Source: Candidatus Doudnabacteria bacterium (GTDB taxonomy: Bacteria; Patescibacteriota; Doudnabacteria; UBA920; O2-02-FULL-48-8). Taken from it: a DNA stretch of 64,000 bases. The DNA is taken from the NCBI GenBank assembly GCA_037200925.1, contig JBBCGO010000001.1:824235-888234 (forward strand), in the 5' to 3' direction. The notes under the pieces were generated by a model, which was given only the letters and a program-made list of their open reading frames with translations, ran no database searches and was not told the origin of the DNA. Both the position numbers and the translations under genes were made by a program. Position 1 is the first letter of the stretch, and every line of letters begins with the position of its first letter. Shown here piece after piece: positions 15,101 to 64,000 of the stretch.

Positions 15101-16750
15101 GTTGATCAAGATGCCGGCCGGAGCAAAATTGTTCACGATCAGGCGGTCAGCTTCTGCCTGAGCGTCCTTGACGCCCAGAATTTTGTTATCTGCAGCGGCT
15201 GTCTGCACCTGCTGCGTTACCGTATCGGCGGTTATCAGGTCGCGTTCATGACGCTGGTCAGAAAGCGGCTGATTGAAAGAAGTGATTGCAGCCGGGTTTG
15301 CCAGGGGATTTTTGGAATAGATCTTATGCTTTTTATCGATTGGAACGAACAGATCGGAAAAACTTCCGGTTGTCTCGGCGGTTCCGAGCTTTAAGAATCC
15401 TCCCGGTTTGAGCGCAAAATGAAACACCGGAAAGATTTTATGGTGCAGTGCCGGCCCCATGTAAATGAGAAGATTTTGGCAGCTGATAAAATCCAGAAAC
15501 GAAAAGGGAGGATCTTTTATCAAATTTTGCTTGGCAAAAACGCACATCTCTCTTATCTGTTTGCTTATCTGGAAACCGTTTTCTACTCTGTGGAAAAAAC
15601 GCTCCAGCCGCTCGGGCGAGACGTCCAGAGCAATATTTTCGATGTAGATCCCTTCGCGGGCGCGGGCCAATGACTTATCGCTGACGTCAGTGGCAAATAT
15701 TTGTACGGGAATGGCGATCTCGCGCTTTTTTAAATATTCAGACAAACTGATGGCAATGGAATAAGCTTCCTCGCCGGTGGAACATCCCGGCACCCAAATT
15801 CTTACGGGTTTGTCCGGAGGTTTGTTTTTTACGAGCGCCGGCCAGACCTTATGTTCCAGTATCTTAAACCCTTCGGGTTCGCGGAAGAAGCGGGTTACGG
15901 TGATCAGAATTTCGTCATACAGTTCACTGATCTCTTGAGGATGGCTCTTTATGAACTCCACATAATCTTTGTAGCTTTCCATCTTATTGAGTGTCATCCG
16001 TCGTTCTATGCGCCGTTTAATTGTGGCGTATTTGTAATTGGCAAAATCAACGCTGGTGTGGATCCGCAGCAAATTCAGAATTTTATGCATCGACTCATTG
16101 CCGGATGCTACGAATTCTTGAGCTGTTTCATATTCGGGCTTGGCCAAGTGCCCATTTTTCGCAAGCTGGCCTAATTCTTTACCGATGTTTTTGGCGGAAA
16201 GGATATGGTCCACGTTGCCGCTGGCAATGGCAGACTGCGGCATGCCGTTATATTTTGCGGATTCCAGATCCTGGGCAATGGTTATGCCGCCCACGGATTT
16301 AATTTCCGAAATACCAAGCGTGCCGTCACTGCCGGTGCCCGACAGAATGACGCCGATCGGCGGCGTACTACTACTACTATCGTCGGCAAGCGATCTGAAA
16401 AAAATATCTATTGGCATATGCTGGCCGTCAAACATTTTCCGCGGTGTCAGATACAGGATCCTGTCTTTTATGGTTATATTTTTATTCGGCGGAATAACAT
16501 ACACGGTATTTGGTGAAACCGGCATATTATTCTTGGCTTCCAGGATCGGAATAGAGGTTTTTTTACTGAGAATTTCCTGCAAATAACTTTCGTGATGGGG
16601 ATCTAAATGCTGAACCAGGACGTAAGCCATATTGGAACGAGGAGGCAAGTATGAAAGCAATTCAAGAAAAGTCTCCAAGCCCCCGGCTGATGCCCCTATA
16701 CCCACAATAGGAAAATTCCCCCTCGGTGCAAGAGGATATTTCTTTTGCAT
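12125..16750 (-). CDS. Giant multidomain signalling protein: CheB methylesterase - CheR methyltransferase - PAS - coiled coil - PAS - GGDEF - EAL
   Basis: CheB_methylest motif VGIGASAGGLETFLELL. The NEEL-repeat coiled coil EELMAANEEIMSSNEELQSTNEELETAKEELQSTNEEL is typical of CheB/CheR fusion proteins. RWGGDEFIILL (GGDEF), EALIRW, ELEITES and DDFGIGYSSLSYL (EAL) follow. Confidence 0.85.
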   Translation of the reverse strand: MQKKYPLAPRGNFPIVGIGASAGGLETFLELLSYLPPRSNMAYVLVQHLDPHHESYLQEILSKKTSIPILEAKNNMPVSPNTVYVIPPNKNITIKDRILYLTPRKMFDGQHMPIDIFFRSLADDSSSSTPPIGVILSGTGSDGTLGISEIKSVGGITIAQDLESAKYNGMPQSAIASGNVDHILSAKNIGKELGQLAKNGHLAKPEYETAQEFVASGNESMHKILNLLRIHTSVDFANYKYATIKRRIERRMTLNKMESYKDYVEFIKSHPQEISELYDEILITVTRFFREPEGFKILEHKVWPALVKNKPPDKPVRIWVPGCSTGEEAYSIAISLSEYLKKREIAIPVQIFATDVSDKSLARAREGIYIENIALDVSPERLERFFHRVENGFQISKQIREMCVFAKQNLIKDPPFSFLDFISCQNLLIYMGPALHHKIFPVFHFALKPGGFLKLGTAETTGSFSDLFVPIDKKHKIYSKNPLANPAAITSFNQPLSDQRHERDLITADTVTQQVQTAAADNKILGVKDAQAEADRLIVNNFAPAGILINNKLEVIQFRGQTRPYLEMAPGKASFSLLKMVAVGLFSELSQAVDEAKKTKKPFRKENVGLTINGSHRNINIEVLPIGKNGAYFLILFEESSAQAAKVKKNNDRRQGPRSKNQTYKQLEQEVSSTRKYLQELIENHEAANEELMAANEEIMSSNEELQSTNEELETAKEELQSTNEELTTVNEEVQHRNSELGQLSEDLVNLLSTVDIPVVMLEHDLTVRRFTPTAVRILRILPSDIGRPITDIKSNLKVPNMEELLREVIITGTPYKKDVQDLQGTWHSLQIHPSRSHDNKINGTVITLIDIDKLKTSLEYIEAVFDTVREPLLVLDGDLRIKEANSAFYATFKLLKKDVVGQPLYTIEKGQWNIPRLRKLLEEILPEGKKFHDLEIEHDFPNHESRTMLLNARAIPKDGERSPGLILLAIEDISQRQRELSSLIQNSSDFISLVLPEGKILFLNGGGRRLVGNPRGSNGNGKRMTIFDYFMKADREKLEKDILPAIVLGENWTGELQLKHLPTSTPIVTEMHIFAISDPKTKRSSAIAVVARDVRERKQSERTIHHQAFHDTLTNLPNRKLLEDRLGMTLNRAKRHKERVGIIFLDLDQFKTINDTLGHSVGDELLKKVGERLGSCIRREDTLSRWGGDEFIILLINIRDDTQTVKVAEKITAALKPAFKINNHTLHVGASMGIALYPEDGKDIHTLLKNADTALYRSKESARSKHLLYNQGMSERTSKKLAIETALRTALSRKELKIFYQPVINVKDGTLMSVEALIRWQHPKLGLILPREFIAAAEDTGAIIAIDDWVLKTAGMQLKKWHKLDLPDLKLAVNLSAHQFTQANLVKKIASTLHELKLKPAFIELEITESIAMHNLKITTEQLERLKKLGFEISIDDFGIGYSSLSYLNRFPLNNLKIDRSFIKDCLTSEQDAEIVRAIISMAHNLKLKVIAEGVETKEQLEFLASQKCEGGQGKLFSPAIDAASFTKWIKEKYPMLRSE

Positions 16751-47802: not shown

Positions 47803-50800
47803 ATGAAGCAAACTTTTAAACCAATCGATCCGAAGCCTGACTTTCCCAAACTTGAGGAAGAGGTCTTAAAGTTTTGGGAAGACAATCAGATCTTCCAAAA
47901 ATCTTTGGAGCAGACGAAAAACGGCAAGCCGTACGTTTTTTATGACGGCCCGCCGTTTGCTACAGGTACACCGCATTACGGACATATTTTAGGTTCAACT
48001 GTAAAGGACCTGTTTCCGCGCTATCAGACTATGAACGGAAGATTTGTCCGCCGCCGCTGGGGCTGGGACTGCCATGGCCTGCCGATAGAAGAGATAGTTG
48101 AGCGGAAATTGGGGATCTCAGGCAAAAAGGACATTGAGAAGCTGGGCATAAAAAAATTCAACGAAACCTGCCGCTCAATGGTTTTGGAATATGTGGGCGA
48201 GTGGCGGAAGACCATCCGCCGAATTGCGCGCTGGGTTGATTTTGATAATTCTTACAAAACCATGGATCGCGACTACATGGAGTCCGTCTGGTGGGCATTC
48301 AAACAGATCTATGACAAAGGGTTGGTTTACGAAGGCCGCCGGGTGCTTCTTTATTGTCCTCGTTGCGAAACGCCGGTTTCAAATTTTGAAGTGGCTATGG
48401 ATAACAGTTATCAGGAAGTCACAGAAGAAGCGGTAACCGTAAAATTCAAAATCCAAAAGCAGAAGAACACTTATTTATTGGCCTGGACGACCACCCCCTG
48501 GACTTTGCCGGGCAATGTGGCCTTGGCTGTGGGTGCGGATATTGATTACGTAAAAGTTAAAGCAGGCGATGAGTTCTATATTTTGGCAAAAAAAACTGAA
48601 TAAAGACGGGACAATTATTGAAGAATTCAAAGGCTCCAAACTTGTCGGCTTGGAATACGAACCGTTATTTGATGTGCCTGATGTGAGATCAGACAAGTCA
48701 TTTAAAATTTATGCGGCTGACTTTGTGAATACCGAAGACGGCACCGGGGTCGTGCACACGGCCGTGGTTTACGGTGAAGATGACTATGATCTGGGGCTGA
48801 AAGTCGGTTTGCCCGTGGTTCCTTTGCTTGATGAAAAAGGAAAGTTTAATGATAAGGCGCCGAAGTTATTGCAAGGCGTATATTTTAAAGATTCGGAAAA
48901 AATCATTAAGAAAGACCTTGAGGGCAGGGGATTGTTGTTTGCAAAAAATCAGCACAAACATTCTTATCCGCATTGCTGGCGCTGTGGTACGACGCTTTAT
49001 TACAATGCCATCCCGGCCTGGTTCATGAATATCCAAAAGATCAAGAAAGGCCTTTTGGAAACAAATGACAAAGAGATCAACTGGTTCCCCGAGCATCTGA
49101 AACACGGCCGGTACGAAAAAAGCGTGGAAGCAGCCCCTGACTGGAATATTTCCCGCAACCGATACTGGGGCAACCCGATCCCGGTCTGGAAGTGCGAAGA
49201 CGGGCACAATACCGTGGTTGGCAGTATCAAGGATCTGGGTTTGGAAAGAAATACTTTTTATTTTTCAAGACACGGCCAAGCTGACCTGAACCTTACGATG
49301 GTGGCCAGTAATTATCCGGAAATTGTTATCAGCAGCCTGACTGATGAAGGAAAAAAACAAGCCGAAGCATTAGCGAATGACCTCCGGAAGAGCGGTGGTG
49401 TTGATCTGATATTTTCATCTGATTTGAAACGGACAAAGGAGACCGCAGAAATTGTCGGAAAATTACTCGGAGTTAAAGTGGTCGAGGATGAACGACTGAG
49501 GGAATACAATGTCGGCACATATAACGGCAAACCGGACGCTGACTATGACCGCGATTTTCCTGTTGAAGTGCGGTGGGATAAAGCCGCTCCCCAAGGGGAA
49601 ACCTGGAAGCAATTGCAAGAGCGGATGGTTGATTTTACTGAAGAAATCAATAAAAAATATCAAGATAAAAAAATACTCGTTGTTTCGCACGGCGACGCGC
49701 TATGGATGCTACAGAAATATTTTGGGTCAGAGCGAGAATACCCGAAGTTTGGCCAAGTTTTTGAAGTGTCCGTCAGCGTAACGGATCTGCACCGGCCGTA
49801 TATTGATGACATCGTTTTGAAGTGCAAACAATGCGGCAAGGACTCTCATAGAACGCCGGAAATCTTTGATTCCTGGGTGGAGGCCGGTTCCATGCCATTT
49901 GCGGAATATCATTATCCAATTGATCAGAAAGAAACATTTGAGTCACGCTTTCCGGCCCAGTTCATCTCCGAGTATATTGCCCAGACCAGAGCCTGGTTTT
50001 ACGTCATGCATGTCATCTCTTACAATTTATTCGGTAAAGCGCCGTTTGAAAACGTGGCGACCACAGGCACTATTCTGGCTGAAGACGGCGACAAGATGAG
50101 CAAGTCAAAAAATAACTATCCCGACCCTTGGATCGTGATCGATAAATATGGCGTGGATGCCCTGAGATTTTATCTAATGAATTCTTCTGTCATGAACGCT
50201 GACAATTTGAACTTCAGTGAGAAGGAATTGGGGGTTGTTTACCGCAAAAATATTCTGATCCTTTGGAATATTTATAATTATTTTGTGACTTATGCCAATG
50301 AAGCTGATTGGGAGCCGAAGGGACCCGGTTACAAACCGGATTTGACAAATGTTCTGGATCTTTGGATCGTAGCCAAGACACAAGATCTGGTAAACGAAGT
50401 TACGGAGCAGCTGGATAATTACAACACTGTGCGCGCAACGAGAGCGATAGAAAATTATATCAATGAACTTTCGACTTGGTATGTGAGAAGGAGCAGAGGA
50501 CGAAAAGACAGCCATTTCTTCGGTAGCCTCCGCCATGCGCTGATGGTTCTGGCAAAAGTTTCAGCTCCCGTAACGCCTTATCTGTCTGAACTGATCTACA
50601 GCAATTTGAATAAAAATCCGGATGTGATCTCGGTGCATCTGGCCAAGTGGCCGGAAAAGAAAGAGTTGACCGCTGAACAAAAAGAAATCTTGAGCCAGAT
50701 GCAGTTTGTCAGAGAAACGGTGGAACAAGGGCACGCGCTGCGGAAAAGATCAAACATAAAACTGCGCCAGCCTCTGGCCTCGGTTACCTATACGCTTAAA

Positions 50801-51145
50801 GATCAGTTATCAAAAGAATATGAGGATATTTTGGCTGACGAACTGAATGTCAAAGCCGTAAATTTCGGCAGCAAGCTTGAGTTTGATCTGAACATATCCC
50901 CGGAACTCAAAAAAGAAGGCTTAGCGCGCGAACTGGAACGGGCTGTTCAGGATATGCGCAAAAAGTCAGGCTTGCAGGTTGGCGAACAGGCCGATTTATC
51001 GTATGATACAGATGATGATGAATTAAAAGCCGCTTTTGAACTGTTCGACACCAAAAAGACTTATATCGGGAAGATTTCTCGGGAAAAGGGCGGAGAAATC
51101 GTTGAAATAGACGGGAAAAAAGCGGCGATTGCGTTAAAAAAGTGA
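47803..51145 (+). CDS. ileS: Isoleucine--tRNA ligase (eukaryote/archaeal-like type), interrupted by a +1 frameshift in an A8 tract and carrying an inserted histidine-phosphatase (PGM-like) domain
   Basis: HYGH, CP1/editing, KMSKS and C-terminal regions are all present. ORF1 (frame 1) ends ILAKKTE*. ORF2 (frame 2) continues FWQKKLNKDGTIIEEF. The two halves are colinear with a single IleS. Confidence 0.85.
48588..48595 (+). other. A8 homopolymer that is the site of the ileS frameshift
   Basis: GGCAAAAAAAACTG. Removing one A joins ...DEFYILAKK to LNKDGTIIEEFKGSKLVGLEYEPLF in one frame. Confidence 0.7.
49262..49780 (+). other. In-frame histidine-phosphatase (phosphoglycerate-mutase superfamily) domain inserted inside IleS
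   Basis: FSRHGQADLN (RHG motif) ... VVSHGDALWML (second catalytic His). It is flanked by IleS segments ...IPVWKCEDGHNTVVGSIKDLG and VTDLHRPYIDDIVLKCKQCG...FDSWVEAGSMPFAEYHYP, which are contiguous in other IleS proteins. Confidence 0.75.
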
Positions 51146-51688: not shown

Positions 51689-53464
51689 ATGCCCGACGAT
51701 CAGATTTTTGACGAGAAAACCCGCGAAGAGATACCAGTGGATTTCAACCGGCCGGAAAGCGGCTGGAAGAGATTTTTTAAAAATAAAAAAATAATCATCC
51801 CGTCGGCCGTGGCAATCGTTCTGCTCGGCGGAATTTTCTGGTATTTTTTGTCCCGGGGGACCACTCCAGTCAGCCCTACATCCACGAACGTTTTGCTGAC
51901 CGTGAAAGGTCCGGACCAGCTGACCTCAGGCAACGAAGCGGAATACGATATTAAATATCTCAATGGCGAAAATGCCGACTTGGTCGGAATTTCGATGGAA
52001 GTTTTTTATCCGTCCGGTTTTACATTCAAATCATCTACTCCGGTCGCCACGAATTCCACAGGCCAGGCTTTTAACCTGCCGATCTTAAAGCAGGGGGCGA
52101 GTTTCGAAATCGTGATCAGAGGAAAACTTTCCGGTTCCACGGGCGAGGATAAGGAAATTAAGGCCCGGTTGCATTACCGCTTGTCCAACTTCAACTCCGA
52201 ATTTATAGTGGAGCAGAGCAAACATACCGGTATTTTGCCGCCCAATCTGACCATGGATATCAACGGTCCGGTGGATGTCGTGAACGGCCAGAACACGACA
52301 TATACCATAAATTTTACCAATGTTTCTTCGCAGGATTTCGATAACCTGGCAGTACAGCTGACCTATCCCGAGGGCTTTATTTTTACTTCCAGCGTCCCGG
52401 CGCCTGCCAAGAACAACAGCTATTGGATCATCCCGAAACTTGCGAGCGGCAGTTCGTCGAATATCAATATCACAGGGAGTTTTACGGGGGATTCGTCGCA
52501 GGATTTGCTGGTCCGGGCCGATCTTGGGCAAATTATCAATAACACTTTTGCACCGCAGCTGGTTTCCACCGCTACTTTCAAGATCATTCCTTCTTCCTTA
52601 GCGTTGACAATCTCATCGACATCCAAGGACTACATCAAACTGGGAGACAGTATCCAGTACGCGCTGAAATATTCCAATCAGGGGAGTATCGGCTTGAGCA
52701 ATATTATTATCACCCTCAATCTGGACAGCCCAGCGGTGGATTTTACAAGGCTCACGGCGCAAAATGCGATCATCACCGGCAATACCCTGACCTGGAAAGC
52801 TGCGACCACGCCCGCCCTTGCGGCTTTATCTCCCAACGACAGCGGCGAGATCGATTTCTCGGTTCCGGTTAAGGACAATCTGCCGACCAATCTGAAAAAC
52901 CAGTCAGTCACAGCGTCTGCAACAATTTCATCGGATGAAATAACCCAGCCGACTCAGGCCACGGCTTTGGTGCTCAAATTGATCTCCGGCCTTGATCTTA
53001 CAGTTGACGGCAACTATGTTTCCGGCGTAGTTCCCATGCAGGTCGGCCAAACCACCATTTTTGCCATGACCTTCACGCTTTCTAATTTAAGCAATGATGT
53101 GTCGGGAACCACAGTCACGGCATCTTTGCCCTTGCCGCCAACCGCATGGAATAGTGTAATAGTCCCGGATTCGGAAAAACAGCGCTTAAGCTATGATCCC
53201 AATTCGGGAAAGATCAGTTGGAAGATCGGAACCCTGCCGGCATTCACCGGCAAGTTCACTCCGGCTTTGGTGGTAACATTCCAGCTGCAGGTCACGCCCA
53301 CGGAATCAGACCGCGGCAAACCGTTAAACCTGCTTTCGAATGTGCAGGCGGTGGGTACCGACACTTTTGTCAATCAGCCGATTCAAACCCAGAATATAAG
53401 TTCTGTATCCTCATCAAGCATTAATGATGATGTCTTGAATGTAAAGGGATCAATAGTACAGTAA
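51689..53464 (+). CDS. Membrane-anchored protein with repeated DUF11/CARDB-like beta-sandwich domains
   Basis: N-terminal TM helix. Repeated ...TYTINFTNVSSQDFDNLAVQLTYPEGFIFTSS...-type units occur four to five times. Confidence 0.5.
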   Translation: MPDDQIFDEKTREEIPVDFNRPESGWKRFFKNKKIIIPSAVAIVLLGGIFWYFLSRGTTPVSPTSTNVLLTVKGPDQLTSGNEAEYDIKYLNGENADLVGISMEVFYPSGFTFKSSTPVATNSTGQAFNLPILKQGASFEIVIRGKLSGSTGEDKEIKARLHYRLSNFNSEFIVEQSKHTGILPPNLTMDINGPVDVVNGQNTTYTINFTNVSSQDFDNLAVQLTYPEGFIFTSSVPAPAKNNSYWIIPKLASGSSSNINITGSFTGDSSQDLLVRADLGQIINNTFAPQLVSTATFKIIPSSLALTISSTSKDYIKLGDSIQYALKYSNQGSIGLSNIIITLNLDSPAVDFTRLTAQNAIITGNTLTWKAATTPALAALSPNDSGEIDFSVPVKDNLPTNLKNQSVTASATISSDEITQPTQATALVLKLISGLDLTVDGNYVSGVVPMQVGQTTIFAMTFTLSNLSNDVSGTTVTASLPLPPTAWNSVIVPDSEKQRLSYDPNSGKISWKIGTLPAFTGKFTPALVVTFQLQVTPTESDRGKPLNLLSNVQAVGTDTFVNQPIQTQNISSVSSSSINDDVLNVKGSIVQ

Positions 53465-53536: not shown

Positions 53537-54664
53537 TTAGGGCCTTACGTATGCCAGCGGATTAACTCGCGTGCCGTTCTTTATGATCTCAAAGTGCAAG
53601 TGGATACCTGTGACTCCGCGAACACGTCCGGTGTGGCCTTGTTTGGCGATCAGCTGGCCCTGCTTCACAGTATCACCGGCTTGCACGTAAAGCTCTGAAG
53701 CATGCCCATAGCGCGTTTTAAAACCATTGCCGTGGTTGATGACGATCGTGTTGCCGTAGCCGTTGGCCTGATAACCTGAGATTTCAACGAACCCGTCAGC
53801 CGCAGCATAGATCGGCTCCATTTTGCTGTCGGAAATATCCAGCCCGGTATGACGGGAGGAGAAGCCCTGCGTGATGTTGCGGACCGGGGTCGGCCATATG
53901 AAATTAACGGGTCCCGACAACAGATTATCCGGAGCAGCGGCTTGTTTTAAGGCGACCTGATTGCTGTCATCGCGGACGAACTGGGAAGGAGGTTTTGGCT
54001 TTGTCGGGACAGTGACATTATCCAAAGGGATGACTACAGTGGCGCCTACATCCAGATCGTCAAAAGATTCGATATTGTTGGCGTCAAGAAAATCATCCTC
54101 AGAAACCTTATATTTATTTAAGATCGATTCCAAAGTATCACCTTCCTTGAGCGTGTAGGTAATGCCGGTGATCGGCAAGATCGTCAGTTCTTGCCCCGGT
54201 TTTATGACGCTGGTCGTGTCCAGCTTATTTTCCATCATGATAGTTTGCGGGGAAATTCCGAAGCTGGTCGCGACACTGACAACAGAGTCGCCGGGCTGGA
54301 CGCTGTATTGGGTCAGGCCCTGGCGGTAGTTGTTCTGGGTATCAGCAGGATTGGTTTTTACTATCACGTCAGCCTGGATGGTGGTCGGGTCCGCGGTTGG
54401 AGTTTTTGCGCCCACTGACGCGCTCGCCAGGACTATGCCAAGGGAAGACTGGGCCTGCGCCGTATTTACGAACTGATCGCTGCCGGCCATGATCGTAGTG
54501 GTATCGCTGGAAGCCATGAGCCTGGTGTTCAGTTTCGGGTTGGCTTTAAGGAAAGAAAAAATCACGCTTTGATCATCGGAGGAAGAGATGAGGTTGGCGT
54601 GAGTGCTTAAGGAAAAATTAACCAAAACCGTAAAAGCGGCGATAGTTAAAACCACCAATTCCAA
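53537..54664 (-). CDS. LysM-domain M23-family peptidase
   Basis: Two LysM units (YSVQPGDSVVSVATSFGISPQTIM, YTLKEGDTLESILNKYKVSEDDFLDANNI) and M23 motifs HTGLDIS, YGHASE, GHTGRVRGVTGIHLHFEI. Confidence 0.8.
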   Translation of the reverse strand: MELVVLTIAAFTVLVNFSLSTHANLISSSDDQSVIFSFLKANPKLNTRLMASSDTTTIMAGSDQFVNTAQAQSSLGIVLASASVGAKTPTADPTTIQADVIVKTNPADTQNNYRQGLTQYSVQPGDSVVSVATSFGISPQTIMMENKLDTTSVIKPGQELTILPITGITYTLKEGDTLESILNKYKVSEDDFLDANNIESFDDLDVGATVVIPLDNVTVPTKPKPPSQFVRDDSNQVALKQAAAPDNLLSGPVNFIWPTPVRNITQGFSSRHTGLDISDSKMEPIYAAADGFVEISGYQANGYGNTIVINHGNGFKTRYGHASELYVQAGDTVKQGQLIAKQGHTGRVRGVTGIHLHFEIIKNGTRVNPLAYVRP

Positions 54665-55138: not shown

Positions 55139-57142
55139 ATGAAAGAAAATTTAGGGCTTAATCAAGCTCAATTAGAAGCTGTCACGGCCCCGATGGGACC
55201 GGTTTTGATTTTGGCCGGCGCAGGCAGCGGCAAAACGCGCGCTTTGACCATGCGGATCGTTTATCTGATAAAAAAGATCGGTTTAAGCCCGCGCAATATT
55301 TTGGCAGTGACGTTTACCAACAAAGCCGCGGGAGAAATGAAGGAGCGGATCACGAAACTGCTCGGAAAGAACCTTGATGGTTTGCCGACCATGGGAACTT
55401 TTCATTCCATTGGGGTTAAGATCCTGCGCATCGACGGAAAATTAGTCGGGCTTGATCCTAATTTTTTGATCTACGACAGCCAGGACCAGGAAAGCCTGAT
55501 CAAAGATATTTTATTAAGACAGCGCGTGGACCCGACCAAATACAAGCCGTCAATGTTCGGCGCCATCATTGACCGGGCGAAAAACAATCTGGAGGAACCC
55601 GAGGATATGGAGGAAGACGATAAGGCTTTTTCACGGACGGTAAAAAAAGTTTATGAGACTTATCAGGAGGAGCTGCGGAAGAACAATGCCGTGGATTTCG
55701 GCGACCTTTTGGTTTTACCGGTCAGGATCTTTCAAAAGCATCCCGAGGTTTTGGCAAAATACCAGAAACTCTGGCAATACATCCTGGTAGACGAATACCA
55801 GGACACGAACTATGCCCAGTATATTTTTACCAAACTCCTGGCCGCGGCCCATGAGAATATTTTTGTGGTCGGGGATGACGCACAGGCGATCTACGGTTTT
55901 CGCGGGGCTGACCTGCAGAATATCCTGGACTTTGAAAAAGATTATCCCAAGGCCCGCGTCATCCGCCTCGAGCAGAACTACCGCTCTACGGCTCCGATCC
56001 TTTCTATCGCGGAAAAGATCATTGAATTAAGCCCCCGCCAGCATAAAAAAAAGCTCTGGACGGAAAATGAGCAGGGGAAAACCCCGGTCTTGTTCGTGGC
56101 CCCGGATGAACTGGCAGAAGCTTACTTTGTCGCCGGCAAGATCATTGAACAGCAGGACGGGAAGTCAGAAGAGATGCAATACGTGGAAGAGGATGACGAG
56201 ACAATCCTGGGACGAATTATGCGCAATGCCAAATCCAAGATCTTGCCCAAGCTTAGGAACCGGAACGGACTGAACAACATTGCCGTGCTTTACCGTACGC
56301 ACGCCCAGTCGCGCGTTTTGGAAGAAGTTATGATCGAGGCCTCGATCCCTTACCAGATCGTCGGCGGTTTGAAATTCTACGAACGCAAAGAAATTAAAGA
56401 TATCTTGAGTTATTTGAGGCTTTTGGTTAATTCCAATGATCTGATAAGCATGAAGCGTGTCATCAACACCCCTCCACGCGGCATTGGTCCGAAGACCTTT
56501 GACTTGCTCAAAGAATCTTTGCTCGAAAAGAACGAGAAATTGCTTGGTGAATTGATGGCAGCCAAGCCTGCGGTCAAGAATTTTTTTGAAATGCAGGATC
56601 TGCTGACCAATCTGGATGAAAGCGGCAATCTGCTTGATCTGCTTCGCCAGGTCCTGAAACTGACCGGCTATGAAAGTTTTTTGCGCGATGGGTCGGAAGA
56701 AGGCGAAGGCCGATGGGAAAACGTCCAGGAACTGTTCAATGTGGCCGGCAGTTTTCGGGGGTTGCCCTGGAAAGAAGGATTGAATCAGTTTTTGGAAGAA
56801 GTGGCGCTCATGACCTCTGCTGATGAAGTTGATATGAATTCTCCGAAAGTAACTCTTATGACCTTGCATCAGGCGAAAGGCTTGGAATACGAAACCGTGT
56901 TTCTGGTGGGGCTGGAGGAAGGCTTGCTGCCCCATGCCCGCTCTTTGCTTGAACCAAAAGACATTGCCGAGGAAGTGCGCTTGGCTTATGTGGGCGTGAC
57001 CCGCGCGCGAAAAAATCTGTATCTGGTCTATGCGCAAACGCGCAAACAGTACGGCATGAGGAATGTTTCGATACCGTCAAGGATCCTCAAAGCCATCCCT
57101 GAAGAATTATTGGACATCCATGAATCAAATCAATACTGGTGA
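55139..57142 (+). CDS. uvrD: ATP-dependent DNA helicase UvrD/PcrA
   Basis: Walker A AGAGSGKT, motifs II (DEYQDT), VGDDAQAIYGFRGA, helicase C-terminal motifs. Confidence 0.9.
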   Translation: MKENLGLNQAQLEAVTAPMGPVLILAGAGSGKTRALTMRIVYLIKKIGLSPRNILAVTFTNKAAGEMKERITKLLGKNLDGLPTMGTFHSIGVKILRIDGKLVGLDPNFLIYDSQDQESLIKDILLRQRVDPTKYKPSMFGAIIDRAKNNLEEPEDMEEDDKAFSRTVKKVYETYQEELRKNNAVDFGDLLVLPVRIFQKHPEVLAKYQKLWQYILVDEYQDTNYAQYIFTKLLAAAHENIFVVGDDAQAIYGFRGADLQNILDFEKDYPKARVIRLEQNYRSTAPILSIAEKIIELSPRQHKKKLWTENEQGKTPVLFVAPDELAEAYFVAGKIIEQQDGKSEEMQYVEEDDETILGRIMRNAKSKILPKLRNRNGLNNIAVLYRTHAQSRVLEEVMIEASIPYQIVGGLKFYERKEIKDILSYLRLLVNSNDLISMKRVINTPPRGIGPKTFDLLKESLLEKNEKLLGELMAAKPAVKNFFEMQDLLTNLDESGNLLDLLRQVLKLTGYESFLRDGSEEGEGRWENVQELFNVAGSFRGLPWKEGLNQFLEEVALMTSADEVDMNSPKVTLMTLHQAKGLEYETVFLVGLEEGLLPHARSLLEPKDIAEEVRLAYVGVTRARKNLYLVYAQTRKQYGMRNVSIPSRILKAIPEELLDIHESNQYW

Positions 57143-57929: not shown

Positions 57930-58095
57930 AAAAGTGTTTTGGGGCTTGCAAAGAATCAGAATCTGTGCTATAATATATATATAGTTTGAAACGGTTTTCG
58001 AAACAAAAACCAACAAAAATCAATAAAATAAAGCCGAAATGAGAGATTTGGCAAGCCTAGTTTTGAGCTTGTCATTCCTTATTTTGAGAGACGGC

Positions 58096-58476
58096 ATGTT
58101 CATGTCAAGAAATAAACAAGAAGCAACCAGATTATTTGCACTAACAGTAATACTTATTAGTGTGCTGTTTTTGCCTCATACTCATAAGGCTCAGGCGCAA
58201 GCGGCAGGCCTGCCTTTCGGCGGCCGGCTTTTGTTTACTACGCCCCCAATTATCACAGTATTTGTCAATTGTCCTGCTATAGCTACCGTTTCAAATTTTG
58301 GACCAGGACCAAAAGTTTTGCATTTACTACTGCCTCCGATACAACCTAGATCTTTTTATAATTTTTATCTTCCCGGGGTCGCAGTTTTAGGAACATATTT
58401 TCCTACCCCGCTTCCTTTTAATTGTCCAATAGCGCCAATTTTTCCAGCATTCTATTTTGGGACAAGCGGCAGATAA
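58096..58476 (+). CDS. Small secreted Pro/Phe-rich protein, hypothetical (start at the Met preceding the signal peptide)
   Basis: Signal peptide MFMSRNKQEATRLFALTVILISVLFLPHTHKAQA, then a Pro-rich ~100-aa mature region with two Cys. Confidence 0.4.
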   Translation: MFMSRNKQEATRLFALTVILISVLFLPHTHKAQAQAAGLPFGGRLLFTTPPIITVFVNCPAIATVSNFGPGPKVLHLLLPPIQPRSFYNFYLPGVAVLGTYFPTPLPFNCPIAPIFPAFYFGTSGR

Positions 58477-58480
58477 AAAA

Positions 58481-59437
58481 ATGTTCAGAAATAAAAAACC
58501 AAAAAATCAATACGGAACGTTTGCTACCGACAGGCCACAGAACAAAAAAACTGCGAAAATTTTAATTACGGTTTTGCTGGGCGTGATTTTTGTTTTGGGC
58601 GTTGGTATTGCTTTGTTTAGGAAAGCCAATAAGCCTGTCCAGATAGCCGAAGTGCAGCAAATTTCAGCTACGATCCCGGGATGGTGGTATCAGCAATATT
58701 TCGGTTCCAGCGTTTGTACTCCTCAAAGCAGCAATTGGAATGTTTGTAAACCCGACGCTGATCCAGACCACGATGTATTGACCAATGCGCAGGAATTTTA
58801 TTATCACACCGATCCTAATAATAACCACACCGTTGGAGATAAAATGTCTGACGGACAATTGGTCGCTGGTGGATTTGATCCGAGCAAATCAGGAAAAATT
58901 ACTTTTGATCAGGCAGCCAACGACGGGAATATTTTTGGAGAAAGTTTGGTTTTTGACAAAGACATAAAAAGCATGATTTCGGATATGACCGATGTCAATA
59001 ATGCACCTTTACCCGACGTTAGTGATGCGAGCATCAAAACTTCGAATGACAATTCGAAGCAAAGCATTAGTGATTATTTAAACCAGCTTAACAATATTTT
59101 TAAGAAATATTTTCCAGATGACGTCGACATTGCAACCCTGATCAAGGTTCAGGACCCCAACGGCCTGGATGATTTGAGAACAAATACTGCCAAGGCATTG
59201 TCGGAAACAGAGCAAATTACGGTTCCATCTGACGCTGTGCAGCTTCAGAAATATCAAATTGGCCTGTTGCAAACTATTCCTTTAATCATGGTTTTGCCTT
59301 CCCAGAGTGAGCTGTCTGACACAACGAACGTAATTAGCAACTCTTGGTATGATAGTGTCCGTACTTACACTTCATTGGTTCAAAAGACCGGCATTGAAGC
59401 CACGAAATTAGTGAAAAAATACAATGTCGGTAAATAG
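58481..59437 (+). CDS. N-terminally membrane-anchored extracytoplasmic protein, hypothetical
   Basis: KILITVLLGVIFVLGVGIALF anchor. No recognisable motif. Overlaps neighbours on both sides. Confidence 0.4.
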   Translation: MFRNKKPKNQYGTFATDRPQNKKTAKILITVLLGVIFVLGVGIALFRKANKPVQIAEVQQISATIPGWWYQQYFGSSVCTPQSSNWNVCKPDADPDHDVLTNAQEFYYHTDPNNNHTVGDKMSDGQLVAGGFDPSKSGKITFDQAANDGNIFGESLVFDKDIKSMISDMTDVNNAPLPDVSDASIKTSNDNSKQSISDYLNQLNNIFKKYFPDDVDIATLIKVQDPNGLDDLRTNTAKALSETEQITVPSDAVQLQKYQIGLLQTIPLIMVLPSQSELSDTTNVISNSWYDSVRTYTSLVQKTGIEATKLVKKYNVGK

Positions 59438-61145
59438 AATAAAAAAAACAATCTCGATTGGCTTAACTGGAAGCATTGTTTTATTGCAAGTTTTGTTTTT
59501 TTCATTGGCTTCAGCTCCTTCTGTAGCTCACGCGGATGATTTTCCTTTGCCGTCAACCTTTATTCCGCCGTCAACAATAGCAATTACCGTGCCCACAACA
59601 ACGGCGTTGAACATACCCGATCAGCTCGATAATAAATACATTGCCATTATGAGGGGCATTGCTTTTGCCGCAGTCCAAAAATTCACCTCAGTTTTTATCA
59701 ATAAATTAACGGAGAAATATAAGATCAGGAACTACCTCTATTATGACCAAGTTTTAACTAATTATTATTTAAGCAATTATATTAGTGATAAGATCCAAGA
59801 CCCGAATTTGCGGCAAATATACGGCTTGATGAACGCAGGTTATGTAACAGGCCAATCAACAGGAACTACCGGAGGACCCGATCCGAACAAAGCTCTAATC
59901 CCAAGGCTTAAAACTGCGATCAATAATTATTATCAGAATAATTTTGGCGTGTCAGATAATGTGATAACCAACAATCCGAATAATTTATCGGGCTATGATT
60001 ATTATTCCACTGCTTTCAGTTATTATCTCAACCCGCCGGGTTATGTGTATCAAAACCTCCAGGGACAATTTGGGGCATTCCAGTCAGCCGCCACGACAGC
60101 GGCGCAGCTGGAAGTAATAGTCGGCAACAGTCTGAAAGCCGGGCGAGTTGTCGGAGGTTTTTGCAGTAATACGACCGATAACGTTTCCTGGGGCGATGGC
60201 TGGGCGCCTGCTTCATGTGTAGCCTCCGGCGGCAAATGGAATGCTTCGGCTCTGGATAATGCCCGATCTTTTATCGATAACCCCACCACTTTTATAAATA
60301 ATTGGTTACAGGGAGTTATATCAAGCCAGACCAACACCAATTTTGACCCAAATAACTTTTGGTACGCGATTGGCGGCGCCTTAGGAAACTTTTTACTTAA
60401 TTCATTAACCGCCAGTTCCAGTAGCAGTGCAGTAATAAATGAAGATCCAAATCACCCTTATGTTCCATCAAACAATGGGGGAATTACTTCGGGGGCAAAT
60501 ATAGATATTGATGGCGACGGGATAGCAGACGGATTTTCTGTCAATAATAACGGTATAATTGATAATTGTTTCTTTGGCGGCACAGCTCCAAATAATTGCG
60601 TCGGATCGAAAACTGCGCTGGCTCCGCCACCAGCGGGGGGAACTTGTACTGTGACCAGTACGGGCACGGCTGGCACACAACCGGATTCAATTGATCTGAA
60701 TTCCGTTGTATATGAAGCAGGTTCACCTAATGTCGCCGGCTGGGCCCAGACCGCGACCATCACAAATCCCGATCTCTCTGCAAATGGTTCAATTGATTTT
60801 ACTAAGAAAGATGGTCCTGACCGTTGGCCAGATCAGCCGTATACTGCGGGAAGCGCCGACACAATTCAATACACTATCTGGTATTTCCTGTATATTGACG
60901 GCCAATGGTATGGAGCTGCGGTGGTTGATCAGTGGTTTGGAAGGCCAGGCAATGGAGGCGGCATTTATAATTCCAATCCGCCGCTCTGCAATTGGGCAAC
61001 CGGCAGCCAGTACGGTCCGATGTTCGGGCATATGATCGTGCCAGGCGAGAAAGTCGGAATTATGGTTACTGCAGGAGGGGTGCGGCAGAACCATGATTCA
61101 AATATCAAAGAGAGATCAGACGTTGTAGTTGTGCCGGCACCTTGA
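59424..61145 (+). CDS. Secreted 573-aa protein with a calcium-binding-like DIDGDGIADG loop, hypothetical
   Basis: Signal peptide ...ASAPSVAHA. Asn/Tyr/Gly-rich. DxDxDG motif. Confidence 0.45.
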   Translation: MSVNRIKKTISIGLTGSIVLLQVLFFSLASAPSVAHADDFPLPSTFIPPSTIAITVPTTTALNIPDQLDNKYIAIMRGIAFAAVQKFTSVFINKLTEKYKIRNYLYYDQVLTNYYLSNYISDKIQDPNLRQIYGLMNAGYVTGQSTGTTGGPDPNKALIPRLKTAINNYYQNNFGVSDNVITNNPNNLSGYDYYSTAFSYYLNPPGYVYQNLQGQFGAFQSAATTAAQLEVIVGNSLKAGRVVGGFCSNTTDNVSWGDGWAPASCVASGGKWNASALDNARSFIDNPTTFINNWLQGVISSQTNTNFDPNNFWYAIGGALGNFLLNSLTASSSSSAVINEDPNHPYVPSNNGGITSGANIDIDGDGIADGFSVNNNGIIDNCFFGGTAPNNCVGSKTALAPPPAGGTCTVTSTGTAGTQPDSIDLNSVVYEAGSPNVAGWAQTATITNPDLSANGSIDFTKKDGPDRWPDQPYTAGSADTIQYTIWYFLYIDGQWYGAAVVDQWFGRPGNGGGIYNSNPPLCNWATGSQYGPMFGHMIVPGEKVGIMVTAGGVRQNHDSNIKERSDVVVVPAP

Positions 61146-61165: not shown

Positions 61166-64000
61166 GATGAAACAAAAAGCAAAAATTAGTATATTTATGA
61201 GTTCAATCTTGGCAAGCTTAGTGTTTGCTAATTTTGCTTTGGCGCAGGCAAATCCTCCGATTATTGTCACAAATCCTTTTCCTTCCACGACTACTACACC
61301 TTCTACACCCGATACTATTACTTCGGCTGAGCTCATCCAGATGGATAAGACTGGGCAACAAATGCGCGATGCCTACACGAATGGTGCCGGGACCTTCACG
61401 GGCTTTACCCATAGCGTGGAAAGCTGGTCTTATGCGCCATTTGATACATATAAACAACAATGCAAGGCCATTGGTGATAAACTCGCCCAAGCGTTCCCAA
61501 ATACTGTGAATACCAGCAGCGGTGTGAGTACCACCGTAGGTCTGAATACTATATTTGATCCGTACAATTTTTATTGCACCTGGGGCAGGTATACGGGAGT
61601 TTCCACAACACCCGACAGCTTAGGAAGGAATATTACTGTTGTAAAAGATGACCAAATTGATAATTTGAGGATCATGAAAATGAGCGGCGGTTCCATCAGT
61701 TCCTTGCCTGAAATTCAAAAGAACAGGGAAGCCGCGCAGGCGGCATCGGATAATCAAAGAGCTTCGGTCAATCCTTTAAGCCAGGCGGTAGGCTGGGTTA
61801 TATCGTTTATTTTGAATGTGATTACATATGTACTTTTGGCATTGAGTTCTTTGGCCGGCATAATATTGAACTGGTCAATTGGGAATTTCGGATCGGCAAT
61901 TCAGAGCGAAATAGTATTGAGCGGATGGACAATTGTGCGGGATCTAATGAACATGTTTTTCATTCTTGCGTTTATCGCTATGGCTTTGGCCACAATTTTA
62001 CAGATCGGAGAAGAGTACAACTACAAGCGCTTACTGCCAAAATTGATTATTATGGCTTTACTTATAAATTTCAGCAAAGTCATTGCCGATACGCTGATCA
62101 ATTTTTCCAATTTTTTAACGCAAGTATTTGTTCCGGCGGGCGGGTTTGGTGATTTTGGTCAATTTATTTCAGGGCTTGTAACTCAGGGCCAGGGACCGTT
62201 GGGCCTTTTTATTACCAGTTCCGGCGGAGCGGCAGCGGCATTGGGTCAAGGCATCCTCAAAGTCATAACAGCACTAATTATTACGTTCAGTTTTTTGGCA
62301 ATTGCCGGATTGCTGCTGGTGAGGATAGTCGGGTTATGGGTTCTGACCGTGATCTCTCCTGTAGCATATGCTTTAAATATTTTACCCATCACTGAACACT
62401 ATGCTCGGGAGTGGTGGCAGTGGTTCATCAAATATTTGATCTGGGCTCCTGTATCAATTTTCATGTTGAGAATAGGGGAACAACTGATCGCTATTAAAGG
62501 CTCGCTTACCACCAATGATATGTTTAGTTTTATATTGGTTTCGTTCTTCATGTTTTCGGCGGTGCTAGTGGCGCAAAAAGCCGGCATGGTGGGAGGCGAT
62601 ATGATAATCAACGGAGTAAAAGGCGGAATGGCATTTGCCGGCGGACTCGTGGGAGGAACCGTAGGGAGAGCGTATACAAAGCGAATGAATGCCAATGCTG
62701 ATGCCGCAACTGTGTCCGGAAATACATTCAGAGCGGGGCTGTATAAAGCCGCTGCTTTCTTGAATCCTGTAGCGGCGAGGAAGGCTTTTGAACAGCGCAG
62801 CCACCATCTCGAAGAAGAAGCTTATGGTCCGGCTGTAGGCGCGATGCACGATACTTTGAACCGCGTTATGCCGACTGAATGGCACAATTTAGGCAATGTA
62901 CTTAAGGGCCAGGCTCCAAGTTTAGGCAGAACGACCCAGTTTGGCCAAATAGAAAGCAACCGCGTCATAAACAAGAAAGTTAAAGAAATTAACGAAGCCG
63001 GTTTGACGGAAAAGCAAAGAAGCGAGGGATATATGTCATCCTCCCATTTGGTGGATAAATTGGCTTATGGCCGGGCCATAGCCATGAATAACGGTCAGGA
63101 TGGCTTGGCTGGTGAAAGAGGTCAGAAATATGATCCTACAGCCTATAAAGAAATGATATTTAAGGATTTGATCGCGGCGGGAGCTAATCCTTTGCAAGCC
63201 GGGCGGGAAGCGAATTATATTTCTGAACTGTCCGATGGAAACAAGAAAATCCGGGATTTGGGAGCGGGGGTTGAGGCTGATGTTGACGGTAAACCGCGCG
63301 CGACAGTTGATCTATCTGCAGTTATAGACTTAGGAAAGAAAAATTTTGACGGACCGGATGGATTACAGTCATATTTAAAGAAATTAGGAGTTATTAATCC
63401 CACTACAAACCAATTTGAAGATCGAACGGGAAATGAGCTGGGAGTTGTCAATAATATGGATGATTTTAATGCCTTGTTGAATAAAACCGGCATAACAGAA
63501 GATGAGAAATTATATGATGGCAAGGACTTCAGGCATGAAATAATGAGCGCCCGCGGAGCGCTCGAAGCCGATAGGCGCGGGAAAAGATGGGACGCTGAAG
63601 ATCTGGCTAAGGCATTGGAGCCTGCAGGCACCCATGTCCAGGAATTAAACGGAACATGGGAACATCTTAGCGGCCAAGGCTCAAGATTTTATCAAAGAAT
63701 GAATCCTTCCGTCGGAGCTGCAATTCCGGGAATGCGCAGAACCGCGCCGCGTATGCAAGCCACGATAGGAGGCAGTATAGATGTTAATGGTAAAATTGAT
63801 TATAGTTCAATACCAACCGATCCCAAAAAGCTAAAAATTTTAGTGGAGAATGTCCATTCCGGGCCTGAAGTTGCTTCTGGATTACTGACAAAGGGTAACA
63901 TTGATTTTACAACCGCAGAAAGGATAAGAGATCTTGTGAATGCAGAATTAAAGGAATATAGAAATTCGAAAAAAGCCACAAAAGAATTAGTTGTTGCACA
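61166..64000 (+). CDS. Large (>944 aa, 3'-incomplete) polytopic membrane protein: signal peptide, ~170-aa extracytoplasmic domain, ~6-7 TM helices, long hydrophilic C-terminal domain (VirB6/TrbL-like topology)
   Basis: Read manually in frame 2 with no stop codon from ATG 61166 to the window end. Signal peptide MKQKAKISIFMSSILASLVFANFALAQA. TM cluster VGWVISFILNVITYVLLAL..., MNMFFILAFIAMALATIL..., ILKVITALIITFSFLAIAGLLLVRIVGLWVLTVI..., WWQWFIKYLIWAPVSIFML.... Not in the supplied ORF track. Confidence 0.6.

Follow-up and report, generated by a model that had tools for sequence, protein, structure and literature searches.

The T4SS of the Patescibacteria was described in 2025 (Quinonero-Coronel et al. 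2025, PMC12102498). VirB6 was found in 480 proteins in that survey, compared with 2,474 virB4 genes, and long N- or C-terminal extensions of VirB6 were not discussed. VirB2-like pilin genes are frequent, although not universal, near virB4 in these systems, and the T4SS loci of the class ABY1 co-localise with comF, recG and radA (PMC12102498). The VirB4 proteins of the Patescibacteria form a monophyletic clade of their own in the published phylogeny. Southlakia epibionticum ML1 cannot grow epibiotically without its T4SS genes, virB6 among them (Wang et al. 2023, cited in PMC12102498; also PMC12857230). These systems attract attention at present because the one member of the phylum that can be manipulated genetically depends on them for its epibiotic life. 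VirB6 forms a pentamer in R388, and no more than two of its helices lie within the membrane in that structure. 'Extended VirB6' proteins have also been described (PMC12857230).

The window, i.e. the whole stretch of 64,000 nucleotides of Candidatus Doudnabacteria DNA that was analysed, ends within an open reading frame which in all likelihood codes for an 'extended' VirB6/TrbL protein of 960 amino acids, the central polytopic subunit of a chromosomal, monoderm-type (MPF-FATA-like) Doudnabacteria T4SS. The frame (61167-64000, forward strand, identical to P0001) includes codons 1-944 of the 960. Its start codon had been placed at 61166 in the initial annotation, but the ATG is at 61167-61169, and translation from 61166 yields a stop-ridden frame. 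Translation from 61167 reproduced exactly the reported beginning of the product, MKQKAKISIFMSSILASLVFANFALAQANPP..., and the reported run of 944 codons without a stop, which extends to base 63998 at the end of the window. The frame was missing from the ORF track because it is open-ended, as had been presumed, the ORF lister skipping ORFs which run off an end. The stop codon was found in the downstream sequence, where the full gene ends 16 codons past the window (...ELVVAHDRNDPNKAVFTVKPI, followed by the stop, 51 nt past the window end).

The absence from the ORF track could also indicate an artefact, i.e. non-coding DNA, a pseudogene or a gene whose stop was lost by a sequencing error, and the IleRS gene in the window does contain a probable homopolymer frameshift. 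However, the chance of 944 stop-free codons in a row is approximately 1e-23 at the base composition of the window, and with a codon model trained on the housekeeping genes of the window the annotated frame scored highest of the six (+0.08 vs −0.13 or lower) and was best or tied in each 300-nt block. Codon usage was thus coding-like. The identical protein is encoded by three contigs that come from separate records, two of them NCBI assemblies and the third a Logan assembly, which argues against a stop having been hidden by a sequencing error. There were 35 homologues, with E 1e-118 for the best of those that are not identical, and the fold was predicted with confidence. The artefact explanation has hardly any probability left and is already refuted by these results; the gene is real and conserved. 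The initial reading holds in all its parts: an open-ended frame that codes for a protein, the product having a hydrophobic, polytopic core and a C-terminal domain rich in charges. An identical protein of 950 amino acids has been deposited as "hypothetical protein, Candidatus Doudnabacteria" (MAG, 964-kb contig), hence the ORF has already been called in a public MAG record and is not an unannotated gene.

The deposited start is the ATG at 61197, which would drop the basic N-terminal stretch. Judged from the aligned sequences, the first ATG (61167) is better supported than that at 61197, because a basic MKxK-type stretch precedes the hydrophobic core of the signal peptide in all 14 of the 14 aligned homologues. 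Inspection for Shine-Dalgarno sequences did not tell the candidate starts apart, no such motif being present in any gene examined in this genome. The predicted Sec signal peptide comprises aa 1-28 (61167-61250, forward strand, as are all the features below) and consists of the basic MKQKAK, a hydrophobic core (hydropathy peak 2.01 at aa 7-25) and a cleavage motif of the ALA|QA type; the pattern MKxK...ANFAxAQ is kept in the homologues. We infer that the signal peptide is cleaved. The N-terminal domain which follows (aa 29-202, 61251-61772), presumed to be extracellular, is fast-evolving: BLAST with this domain matched none of the first 35 homologues and gave just two weak matches among 166 sequences. 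It contains the sole cysteines of the whole protein, C99, which is invariant, and C137, kept by 90 % or more of the 15 homologues, and was modelled by AF2 as a helix with a small sheet (partial pLDDT 80-85).

The conserved hydrophobic VirB6/TrbL core (aa ~203-476, 61773-62594) has six to seven long helices, against at least five hydrophobic helices in a VirB6/TrbL polytopic protein. All six of the hydrophobic stretches previously quoted for a core at aa ~200-455 were present. The core has the invariant motifs GW-x-IVRD-x-x-N-x-FF, LLINFS, R386 and SP...LP-x-T...WW...KY. Hydropathy analysis of aa 204-476 showed six hydrophobic stretches, which were interpreted as seven membrane segments with the C-terminus inside, whereas AF2 predicted six long helices (pLDDT 85-95); the topology is thus ambiguous, as is the side of the membrane on which the C-terminal module lies. 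The core is followed by a Gly-rich, basic, helical linker (aa 477-589, 62595-62933), recognized from the alignment, the charge count (9 K+R vs 6 D+E in aa 472-560) and the lower pLDDT (30-77), with the conserved motif FLNPxVAxKAxxQR...EAYxPAxG...DTLNRVMPTEW. Hydrophilic regions thus lie on either side of the core, 174 aa on the N-terminal and 484 aa on the C-terminal side, as in 'extended VirB6' proteins, which combine the core with at least one large hydrophilic domain. The median length in the family was 908 aa (n = 167 sequences, the best 150 of 28,023 representatives together with the homologues from the first search).

The remainder of the protein is a C-terminal globular alpha/beta module (aa ~590-960, 62934-64000, the window including it up to aa 944), the globular part of which, approximately 370 aa, was predicted with an AF2 pLDDT of 88-94 and a pTM of 0.73. 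The description of the C-terminal domain as charged and repeat-poor was accurate, since the last 480 aa carry 65 K+R and 61-62 D+E, and apart from one trivial 24-nt tandem repeat the region is essentially repeat-free. The module is always fused behind a VirB6 core and is restricted to a sub-clade; it is common to P0107 (47 % identity), P0002, P0081, P0162, P0103, P0077, P0005/6 and P0168, the last being one protein returned by the C-terminal profile search. When nine C-terminal homologues were scanned with Pfam, scattered single-member noise and no consistent family came up, and the C-terminal profile had no credible match among PDB sequences, its sole match, the SSB 3pgz (E 0.059), being judged spurious. 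Foldseek searches of the C-terminal model against PDB and BFVD returned low-probability helical-repeat matches and nothing else. The module, newly noticed here, is without a counterpart in Pfam or among solved structures. It is a conserved, structurally orphan and uncharacterised extra domain on a VirB6-like protein which is otherwise an ordinary member of the recently described Patescibacteria system. New here are this module with its globular part and the preference for the 61167 start from the N-termini of the homologues.

The initial annotation had proposed a profile search with TrbL/VirB6 (PF04610), in which homologues passed the gathering threshold of 25.9 bits and the protein itself scored below it (20.0-20.2 bits, E 6e-4, aa 264-464, profile positions 4-210 of 215). 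The homologue P0007, 49 % identical to the protein in the core (E 6.5e-74), scored 37.5 bits, P0020 30.6 bits and P0027 25.9 bits, and 13 of the 35 family members matched TrbL at E ≤ 0.01, so that membership in TrbL is transitive, through unambiguous homologues above the threshold. A precomputed match to PF19590 (TrbL_3) is on record for the identical protein; PF19590 was absent from the results of the local Pfam scan, and PHROGs and NCBIfam scans of the 960-aa protein gave no match. The full-length family profile retrieved low-complexity artefacts from the PDB (SNF5, Mediator, huntingtin), and a core-only profile was used instead. With this profile the sole match among 177,635 PDB sequences was TrwI/VirB6, collinear but weak (E 0.18). 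In a Foldseek search of 350,542 chains, TrwI/VirB6 ranked first, second and fourth (probability 0.95-0.98, TM 0.35-0.41), again with weak E-values (0.06-0.2). In the hhalign comparison with TrwI the conserved motif block aligned at P = 0.006; the alignment with TrwI is collinear and includes the specific motifs GWxIxR and L..SP...P.T...W. The core profile also matched 28,023 representative clusters, and in a scan of genome contigs a single distant locus was seen, in a Veblenbacteria genome (30 % identity).

An unrelated polytopic transporter or anchor encoded near T4SS genes might resemble VirB6 by composition alone. The sub-threshold TrbL score of the protein itself and the weak structural E-values would agree with this, as would the fact that hydrophobic helices often give spurious matches, the low-probability Foldseek matches including rhodopsin and GPCR chains. 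However, close homologues exceed the curated Pfam threshold, VirB6 was ranked first by two independent types of search, the TrwI alignment is collinear and includes specific motifs, and the prgI-trsD-virB4 linkage is kept in four genomes. Resemblance by composition alone is thus largely refuted and has a very small probability. From the sequence comparisons we take the hydrophobic core to be homologous to VirB6/TrbL, and the TrbL/VirB6 identity suggested earlier is backed by family and T4SS-cluster evidence, the fold comparisons pointing the same way with individually weak scores.

The VirB6-like gene is part of a conserved string of genes encoding a membrane protein of ~320 aa, a secreted protein of 570-810 aa, the VirB6-like protein, a soluble protein of 430-540 aa, PrgI/VirB3, a TrsD-like protein, the VirB4 ATPase, two more envelope proteins and RecG. 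The gene order matches in three other genomes (L004, L005 and L006), with homologous flanking unknowns. The first upstream partner in the window (58457-59437) is a bitopic membrane protein of 318/326 aa with a short basic N-terminus, one TM and an outside domain of ~270 aa, publicly called from the ATG at 58481. A homologue lies at the corresponding place in L006 (E 9e-64), and the protein has a weak match, below the cutoff, to the NCBIfam model 'Amuc_1099 pilus-like system' (E 2e-6). The second (59424-61145) is a secreted, Asn/Gly/Thr-rich protein of 573 aa with a signal peptide, ending 21 nt before the VirB6-like ATG; homologous and syntenic proteins are present in L006 (E 5e-62) and L004 (E 3e-44), and no match was found in Pfam, PHROG or NCBIfam. 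Downstream, the VirB6 stop overlaps the ATG of the gene for a soluble 492-aa protein (ATGA) in this genome. The last ~5.5 kb of the window are thus the front half of a Patescibacteria T4SS locus which runs past the window.

The VirB6-like protein is encoded together with VirB3 and VirB4 homologues, on the same strand, with PrgI 2.1 kb and VirB4 3.3 kb downstream (the T4SS genes span 2-4 kb downstream). The PrgI/VirB3 homologue scored 33.1 bits (gathering score 27) and VirB4 368 bits with the NCBIfam model conju_CD1110 (cutoff 325), the family to which VirB4 of pCF10 is likewise annotated and which indicates relatedness to the monoderm MPF-FATA type. The 227-aa ORF directly upstream of virB4 matched TrsD below the cutoff (E 7.5e-5) and the N-terminus of VirB4 models (E 1.5e-12), and has a precomputed PF26593 TraC-like match on record; a TrsD-like gene thus adjoins virB4 in a locus with PrgI/VirB3. 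Homologues of VirB8 and VirB1 were not detected in the cluster, nor was a VirB2-like pilin. The small ORFs (145, 79 and 77 aa) had no pilin match in Pfam, the only database used for them, and were without the two-helix pilin pattern. The 145-aa ORF (58039-58476) was rejected as a pilin or cluster member, having no family match and no similarity to its positional counterpart in L004. The motif SHANGYKVD, found in a 317-aa protein encoded downstream of virB4, looks by eye like that of LAS/M15 peptidases, without profile support.

The cluster is flanked by housekeeping genes (IleRS, RecO, UvrD, KsgA, RecG), and the site is chromosomal. No relaxase or coupling protein (T4CP) was found among the ORFs of at least 400 aa in the ~61 kb upstream in the window and the 10 kb downstream, every window ORF of this size belonging to another family or being a cluster unknown. 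A recently acquired ICE or other mobile element, with the ORF as its VirB6, might be considered from the CD1110/MPF-FATA type of the VirB4, which is typical of conjugative elements of Firmicutes, from the GC3 of the VirB6-like gene, which is below that of the housekeeping genes (0.43 vs 0.60 for UvrD), and from the PIN-domain gene inside the cluster. However, the neighbours on both the UvrD/KsgA side and the recG side are the same in L006, and recG also in L004, which indicates vertical inheritance; integrase, relaxase and T4CP genes are likewise missing nearby, the GC of the region (0.39-0.49) is within the range of the window, and the VirB4 proteins of the Patescibacteria are monophyletic. 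A mobile-element origin, highly unlikely on this evidence, was rejected from the conserved chromosomal synteny.

That a system of the same family moves DNA, whether in uptake or competence, in DNA release (ComB of Helicobacter, Ced of Sulfolobales) or as a remnant of conjugation, and is not a device for host interaction or nutrient exchange, is also rather unlikely. The position of recG directly downstream of the cluster in three genomes (L004 and L006 among them), which recalls the ABY1 loci, the UvrD and RecO genes upstream and the weak matches of VirB4 to the CedB/CedD DNA-import ATPase models all point in this direction, but adjacency to repair genes may merely reflect a compact genome, neither a relaxase nor a coupling protein was found in the ~61 kb upstream and 10 kb downstream, and S. 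epibionticum needs its T4SS but not comEC-dependent DNA uptake (PMC12857230). By analogy with this species, in which epibiotic growth requires the T4SS genes, virB6 included, the machine would most likely serve interaction or exchange with a host cell and not conjugation.

For the preferred central-subunit role, the R388 structure and the T4SS literature suggest that the protein would be inserted Sec-dependently and its signal peptide cleaved, leaving the Cys-pair N-domain outward. The long hydrophobic helices would oligomerise to a platform or protochannel over the PrgI-anchored VirB4 hexamer, which would power transport. More speculatively, the C-terminal module, probably cytoplasmic, may be a docking site for the ATPase, for substrates or for the 492-aa protein translated along with it. 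The module and the syntenic unknown partners are candidate lineage-specific parts of the machine. It is possible, albeit doubtful, that the module and the 492-aa, 318-aa and 573-aa partners form a lineage-specific T4SS set which takes over the functions of the coupling protein, VirB8 and VirB1, none of them found here, and adapts the VirB6 platform to host-cell exchange, e.g. macromolecule uptake from the host; this would be a new architectural variant of the T4SS, beyond a divergent VirB6. A gene deposited as "hypothetical" thus receives a functional assignment and a probable corrected start. The practical value is modest. The core profile retrieved ~28,000 representative clusters, compared with the 480 VirB6 proteins of the published survey.

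Among known systems, TrwI (VirB6) of R388 (PDB 7o3v/8rt9/8rtd; PF04610) is the best structural match of the window protein and shares with it the long-helix hydrophobic core, GWxIxR near the start, the L..SP...P.T...W block and the clustering with VirB3 and VirB4. However, TrwI is a protein of 342 aa (~13-14 % sequence identity) from a diderm MPF-T conjugation system with VirB2/5/7-11, relaxase and T4CP, whereas the 960-aa window protein has a predicted signal peptide, a Cys-pair N-domain of ~175 aa and a C-terminal extension of ~480 aa. PrgH of the Enterococcus plasmid pCF10, the Gram-positive MPF-FATA prototype, is encoded in the same order, VirB6-VirB3 (PrgI)-VirB4, in a monoderm envelope, and the VirB4 proteins belong to the same NCBIfam CD1110 family. 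PrgH is 266 aa long, its profile comparison, in which the same motif block lines up, fell short of significance (E 0.42), and pCF10 is a conjugative plasmid with relaxase and T4CP. The Patescibacteria T4SS (PMC12102498) are from the same phylum and share VirB4 (MPF-FATA-related clade), TrsD, PrgI/VirB3 and VirB6, the chromosomal location without a relaxase, and recG nearby; the window cluster differs in being without an adjoining VirB2-like pilin array in the Pfam scan. The 'extended VirB6' proteins (Rickettsiales paralogues and the MPF-FA Orf15-type, 700-900 aa; PMC12857230), compared by description alone, similarly have at least five hydrophobic helices and large hydrophilic domains, but the MPF-FA extensions are largely unstructured (PMC12857230), whereas a compact C-terminal fold (pLDDT ~90) is predicted for the Doudnabacteria protein.

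The target open reading frame begins with the ATG at window positions 61167-61169 of the forward strand, one base from the position 61166 named in the initial annotation; read from 61166, the frame contains many stop codons. Translation from 61167 reproduced the peptide quoted there and its 944 stop-free codons up to the window end, and the absence of the frame from the ORF track had been rightly ascribed to its open end, the mechanical ORF list omitting ORFs which run off an end. The chance of such a 944-codon frame at this base composition is approximately 1e-23. Codon usage, proposed earlier as a check, also spoke for coding: log-odds scoring of codons, with the well-identified genes of the window (IleRS, RecO, UvrD and KsgA) as training set, gave the target frame +0.08, compared with -0.13 or lower in the other five frames, and ranked it top or tied in every 300-nt block. 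This score was below those of the housekeeping genes (0.23-0.31) and close to those of the adjacent envelope genes (0.04-0.14). GC3 was 0.43, versus 0.60 in UvrD, and the overall GC content of the region was inside the range of the window. An identical 950-aa protein, labelled hypothetical, is found in the database; its gene is present in two NCBI assemblies, in one of them on a contig of 964 kb, and in one Logan assembly. The objection that a sequencing error might have hidden a stop codon was thus answered by three records; the frame is a real gene and not a sequencing artefact.

Only the final 16 codons and the stop are missing from the window, the stop having been located in the downstream sequence which the initial annotation had suggested obtaining. 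The database entry starts at the second ATG (window 61197). Since all 14 aligned homologues start with a basic MKxK-like stretch, which precedes the hydrophobic part of the signal peptide and its ANFAxAQ-like end, the ATG at 61167, giving 960 aa, appears from the alignment to be the better start. No Shine-Dalgarno motif was found in any gene inspected in this genome, which gave no help in choosing the start.

According to hydropathy and charge analysis and the AlphaFold model, the protein consists of a predicted signal peptide (aa 1-28), a hydrophilic N-domain of approximately 175 aa, a strongly conserved hydrophobic core (aa ~203-476, pLDDT 85-95) and a C-terminal region of approximately 480 aa, in which a Gly-rich basic helical linker separates the core from the globular part. 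Both cysteines of the protein are in the N-domain (C99, invariant, and C137, nearly invariant), and W254, R258, D259, N262, N301, S303 and R386 are invariant polar residues of the core. In region-by-region BLAST searches the core alone was common to the whole family, while the N-domain had diverged beyond detection and the C-terminal region was common to a subset of relatives.

The TrbL/VirB6 Pfam search suggested in the initial annotation gave a match spanning profile positions 4-210 of 215, but its score of 20 bits was below the threshold of 25.9. The TrbL model was matched by 13 of 35 homologues, including P0007 (37.5 bits, above the curated threshold of 25.9), the core of which is 49 % identical to that of the target, and P0020 (30.6 bits). 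PF19590 (TrbL_3) is listed in the precomputed annotation of the identical protein, a score not reproduced with the local library. A core-only profile had one match among 177,635 PDB sequences, TrwI, the VirB6 of plasmid R388 (E 0.18), with a collinear alignment and a common GWxIxR motif. In a Foldseek search of the AlphaFold model against 350,542 PDB chains, TrwI/VirB6 chains ranked first, second and fourth, the matches being weak (probability 0.95-0.98, E 0.06-0.2, TM 0.35-0.41). Comparison of the profile with TrwI by hhalign gave P = 0.006 over the conserved R..LW.L..SP...LP.T...W block, with which pCF10 PrgH also aligned, without significance. The TrwI/VirB6 scores, individually weak, are convincing when taken together with the genomic context, and at the family level the VirB6/TrbL link is firm as judged by sequence; the guess of the initial annotation was right. 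The family comprises 28,023 representative clusters (50 % identity) at E <= 0.001 and 17,040 at E <= 1e-30. Median length was approximately 900 aa among 167 sequences (the 150 best representatives and the homologues from the first search), and therefore long extensions are the norm.

Behind the core, alignment of nine sub-clade members revealed the strong motifs FLNPxVAKEAWKxR...EAYxPAxG...DTLNRVMPTEW and RGxxExWxxAxEPAxFxxQ. In the AlphaFold prediction a helical linker leads into a compact alpha/beta domain of approximately 370 aa (pLDDT mostly 88-94, pTM 0.73). This C-terminal module, which unlike the N-domain with its Cys pair has no cysteine, matched no Pfam family consistently and no PDB sequence credibly, and Foldseek searches of PDB and BFVD were negative (best probability 0.25 and 0.41, TM <= 0.21). 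In every sequence bearing it, the module is behind a VirB6 core. With seven hydropathy segments and the N-terminus outside, the C-terminus is predicted to be cytoplasmic, and the first 90 residues beyond the last helix have a mild excess of basic over acidic ones (9 K+R versus 6 D+E). The AF2 model has six long helices rather than seven segments, and VirB6 topology predictions are considered unreliable (PMC12857230).

The gene is part of a T4SS locus which runs on past the window end. The bitopic 318/326-aa membrane protein and the secreted 573-aa protein encoded upstream, inside the window, had no family match above cutoff. Directly downstream, the ATG of a gene for a 492-aa soluble protein overlaps the target stop (ATGA). 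On the NCBI contig locus L003 this is followed by a PIN_3 nuclease-domain gene (L003 14384-14842), PrgI/VirB3 (33.1 bits, above the gathering score of 27) and VirB4 as two adjacent ORFs (L003 15496-18012), a 227-aa TrsD-like ORF, similar to the N-terminal part of VirB4 models, and a 610-aa ATPase, which scored 368 bits with the CD1110 family model (cutoff 325). Next come a TM-anchored Cys/Gly-rich 317-aa protein (L003 18016-18969), a TM-anchored beta-propeller protein and recG. By eye, 'SHANGYKVD' in the 317-aa protein recalls the HxxGxAxD motif of LAS/M15 peptidases, a reading without profile support; conservation with L006 was confined to the TM region.

Gene order is conserved around target homologues in three other genomes (loci L004, L005 and L006), all with the two-ORF VirB4 split, in agreement with the published TrsD observation. 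The PIN_3 gene is also inside the cluster in L004, and 23S_rRNA_IVP-family genes take its place in L006. The flanking proteins without family matches are true homologues across the loci (E 1e-24 to 9e-64). Housekeeping neighbours are also kept, UvrD and KsgA on one side and recG on the other, and neither the window ORFs of at least 400 aa nor the 10 kb downstream yielded an integrase, a relaxase or a coupling protein, which argues against a mobile element.

The VirB6-like gene is preceded, 6.5 kb upstream, by the gene of a cell-wall hydrolase with two LysM domains and Peptidase_M23 (window 53537-54664, reverse strand), whose position is conserved in L006. Some Patescibacteria VirB1 homologues bear extra M23/LysM domains (PMC12102498), and by analogy the hydrolase could serve the T4SS. 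Adjacent to it is a predicted large DUF11/CLIPPER-repeat surface protein (51689-53464, forward strand), the pair being syntenic with the T4SS region in L006.

Elsewhere in the window, the IleRS gene occupies two ORFs which overlap and differ in frame (47803-48603 and 48569-51145, forward strand), with the junction (~48586-48603) at an A8 homopolymer and a plausible continuation, ...LNKDGTIIEEFKGSKLVGLEY, in the other frame; a frameshift, whether genuine or introduced by assembly, is the probable cause. The second ORF has an unusual insertion, a His_Phos_1 histidine-phosphatase domain (aa 231-403, E 6.7e-37), inside the class-I catalytic domain. UvrD is intact (667 aa) in the window (55139-57142) and the NCBI contig (L003 3943-5946) and is replaced by two gene calls (66 and 601 aa) in the Logan record of this organism (L002 3944-5946), an assembly or calling difference. 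On the reverse strand are a 1541-aa signalling fusion of CheB methylesterase, CheR methyltransferase, PAS, GGDEF and EAL (12125-16750), large for a genome of ~1 Mb, and a large predicted surface protein with ice-binding-like, SpaA-like and DUF7507 domains (1824-3965).

By analogy with R388 and the monoderm T4SS literature, the core would oligomerise into a platform or protochannel at the centre of the machine, over the VirB4 (and TrsD) ATPase anchored by PrgI, with the N-domain outside. In the R388 structure two VirB6 helices are membrane-embedded and the remainder is a pentameric stalk base (PMC12857230). More speculatively, docking of the ATPase or of substrates might fall to the C-terminal module and to the 492-aa protein translated along with it, in a system in which no coupling protein is encoded nearby. 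As cited in PMC12102498 and PMC12857230, Wang et al. 2023 reported T4SS genes including virB6 as essential for epibiotic growth of Southlakia epibionticum, in which comEC-dependent DNA uptake is dispensable (2025 FEMS review, PMC12857230). A DNA-related role of the T4SS, to which the adjoining recG and the weak similarity of VirB4 to CedB/CedD would point, seems unlikely; because no relaxase was found in the window ORFs of at least 400 aa or the 10 kb downstream, and given the Southlakia data, the T4SS more probably serves interaction with a host, or exchange, than conjugation.

The target, already deposited without functional annotation, belongs as a divergent protein to a known family, and its system was described recently; what remains of interest is the choice of a better start, the C-terminal module without structural relatives and the conserved partner genes without known role. 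Quinonero-Coronel et al. 2025 (PMC12102498) described a VirB4 clade which is specific to Patescibacteria, is related to the MPF-FATA systems of monoderms and is accompanied by TrsD, PrgI/VirB3, VirB6 and often VirB2-like pilins; these T4SS are chromosomal, usually lack a relaxase and in the class ABY1 adjoin recG, radA and comF. Only 480 VirB6 proteins were detected there, the gaps being put down to divergence. The target cluster is exactly this kind of system, and the protein, with its core and large extensions, resembles the "extended VirB6" proteins, defined as a core with large hydrophilic domains without known role (PMC12857230); it is accordingly one of these, belonging to a Patescibacteria T4SS.
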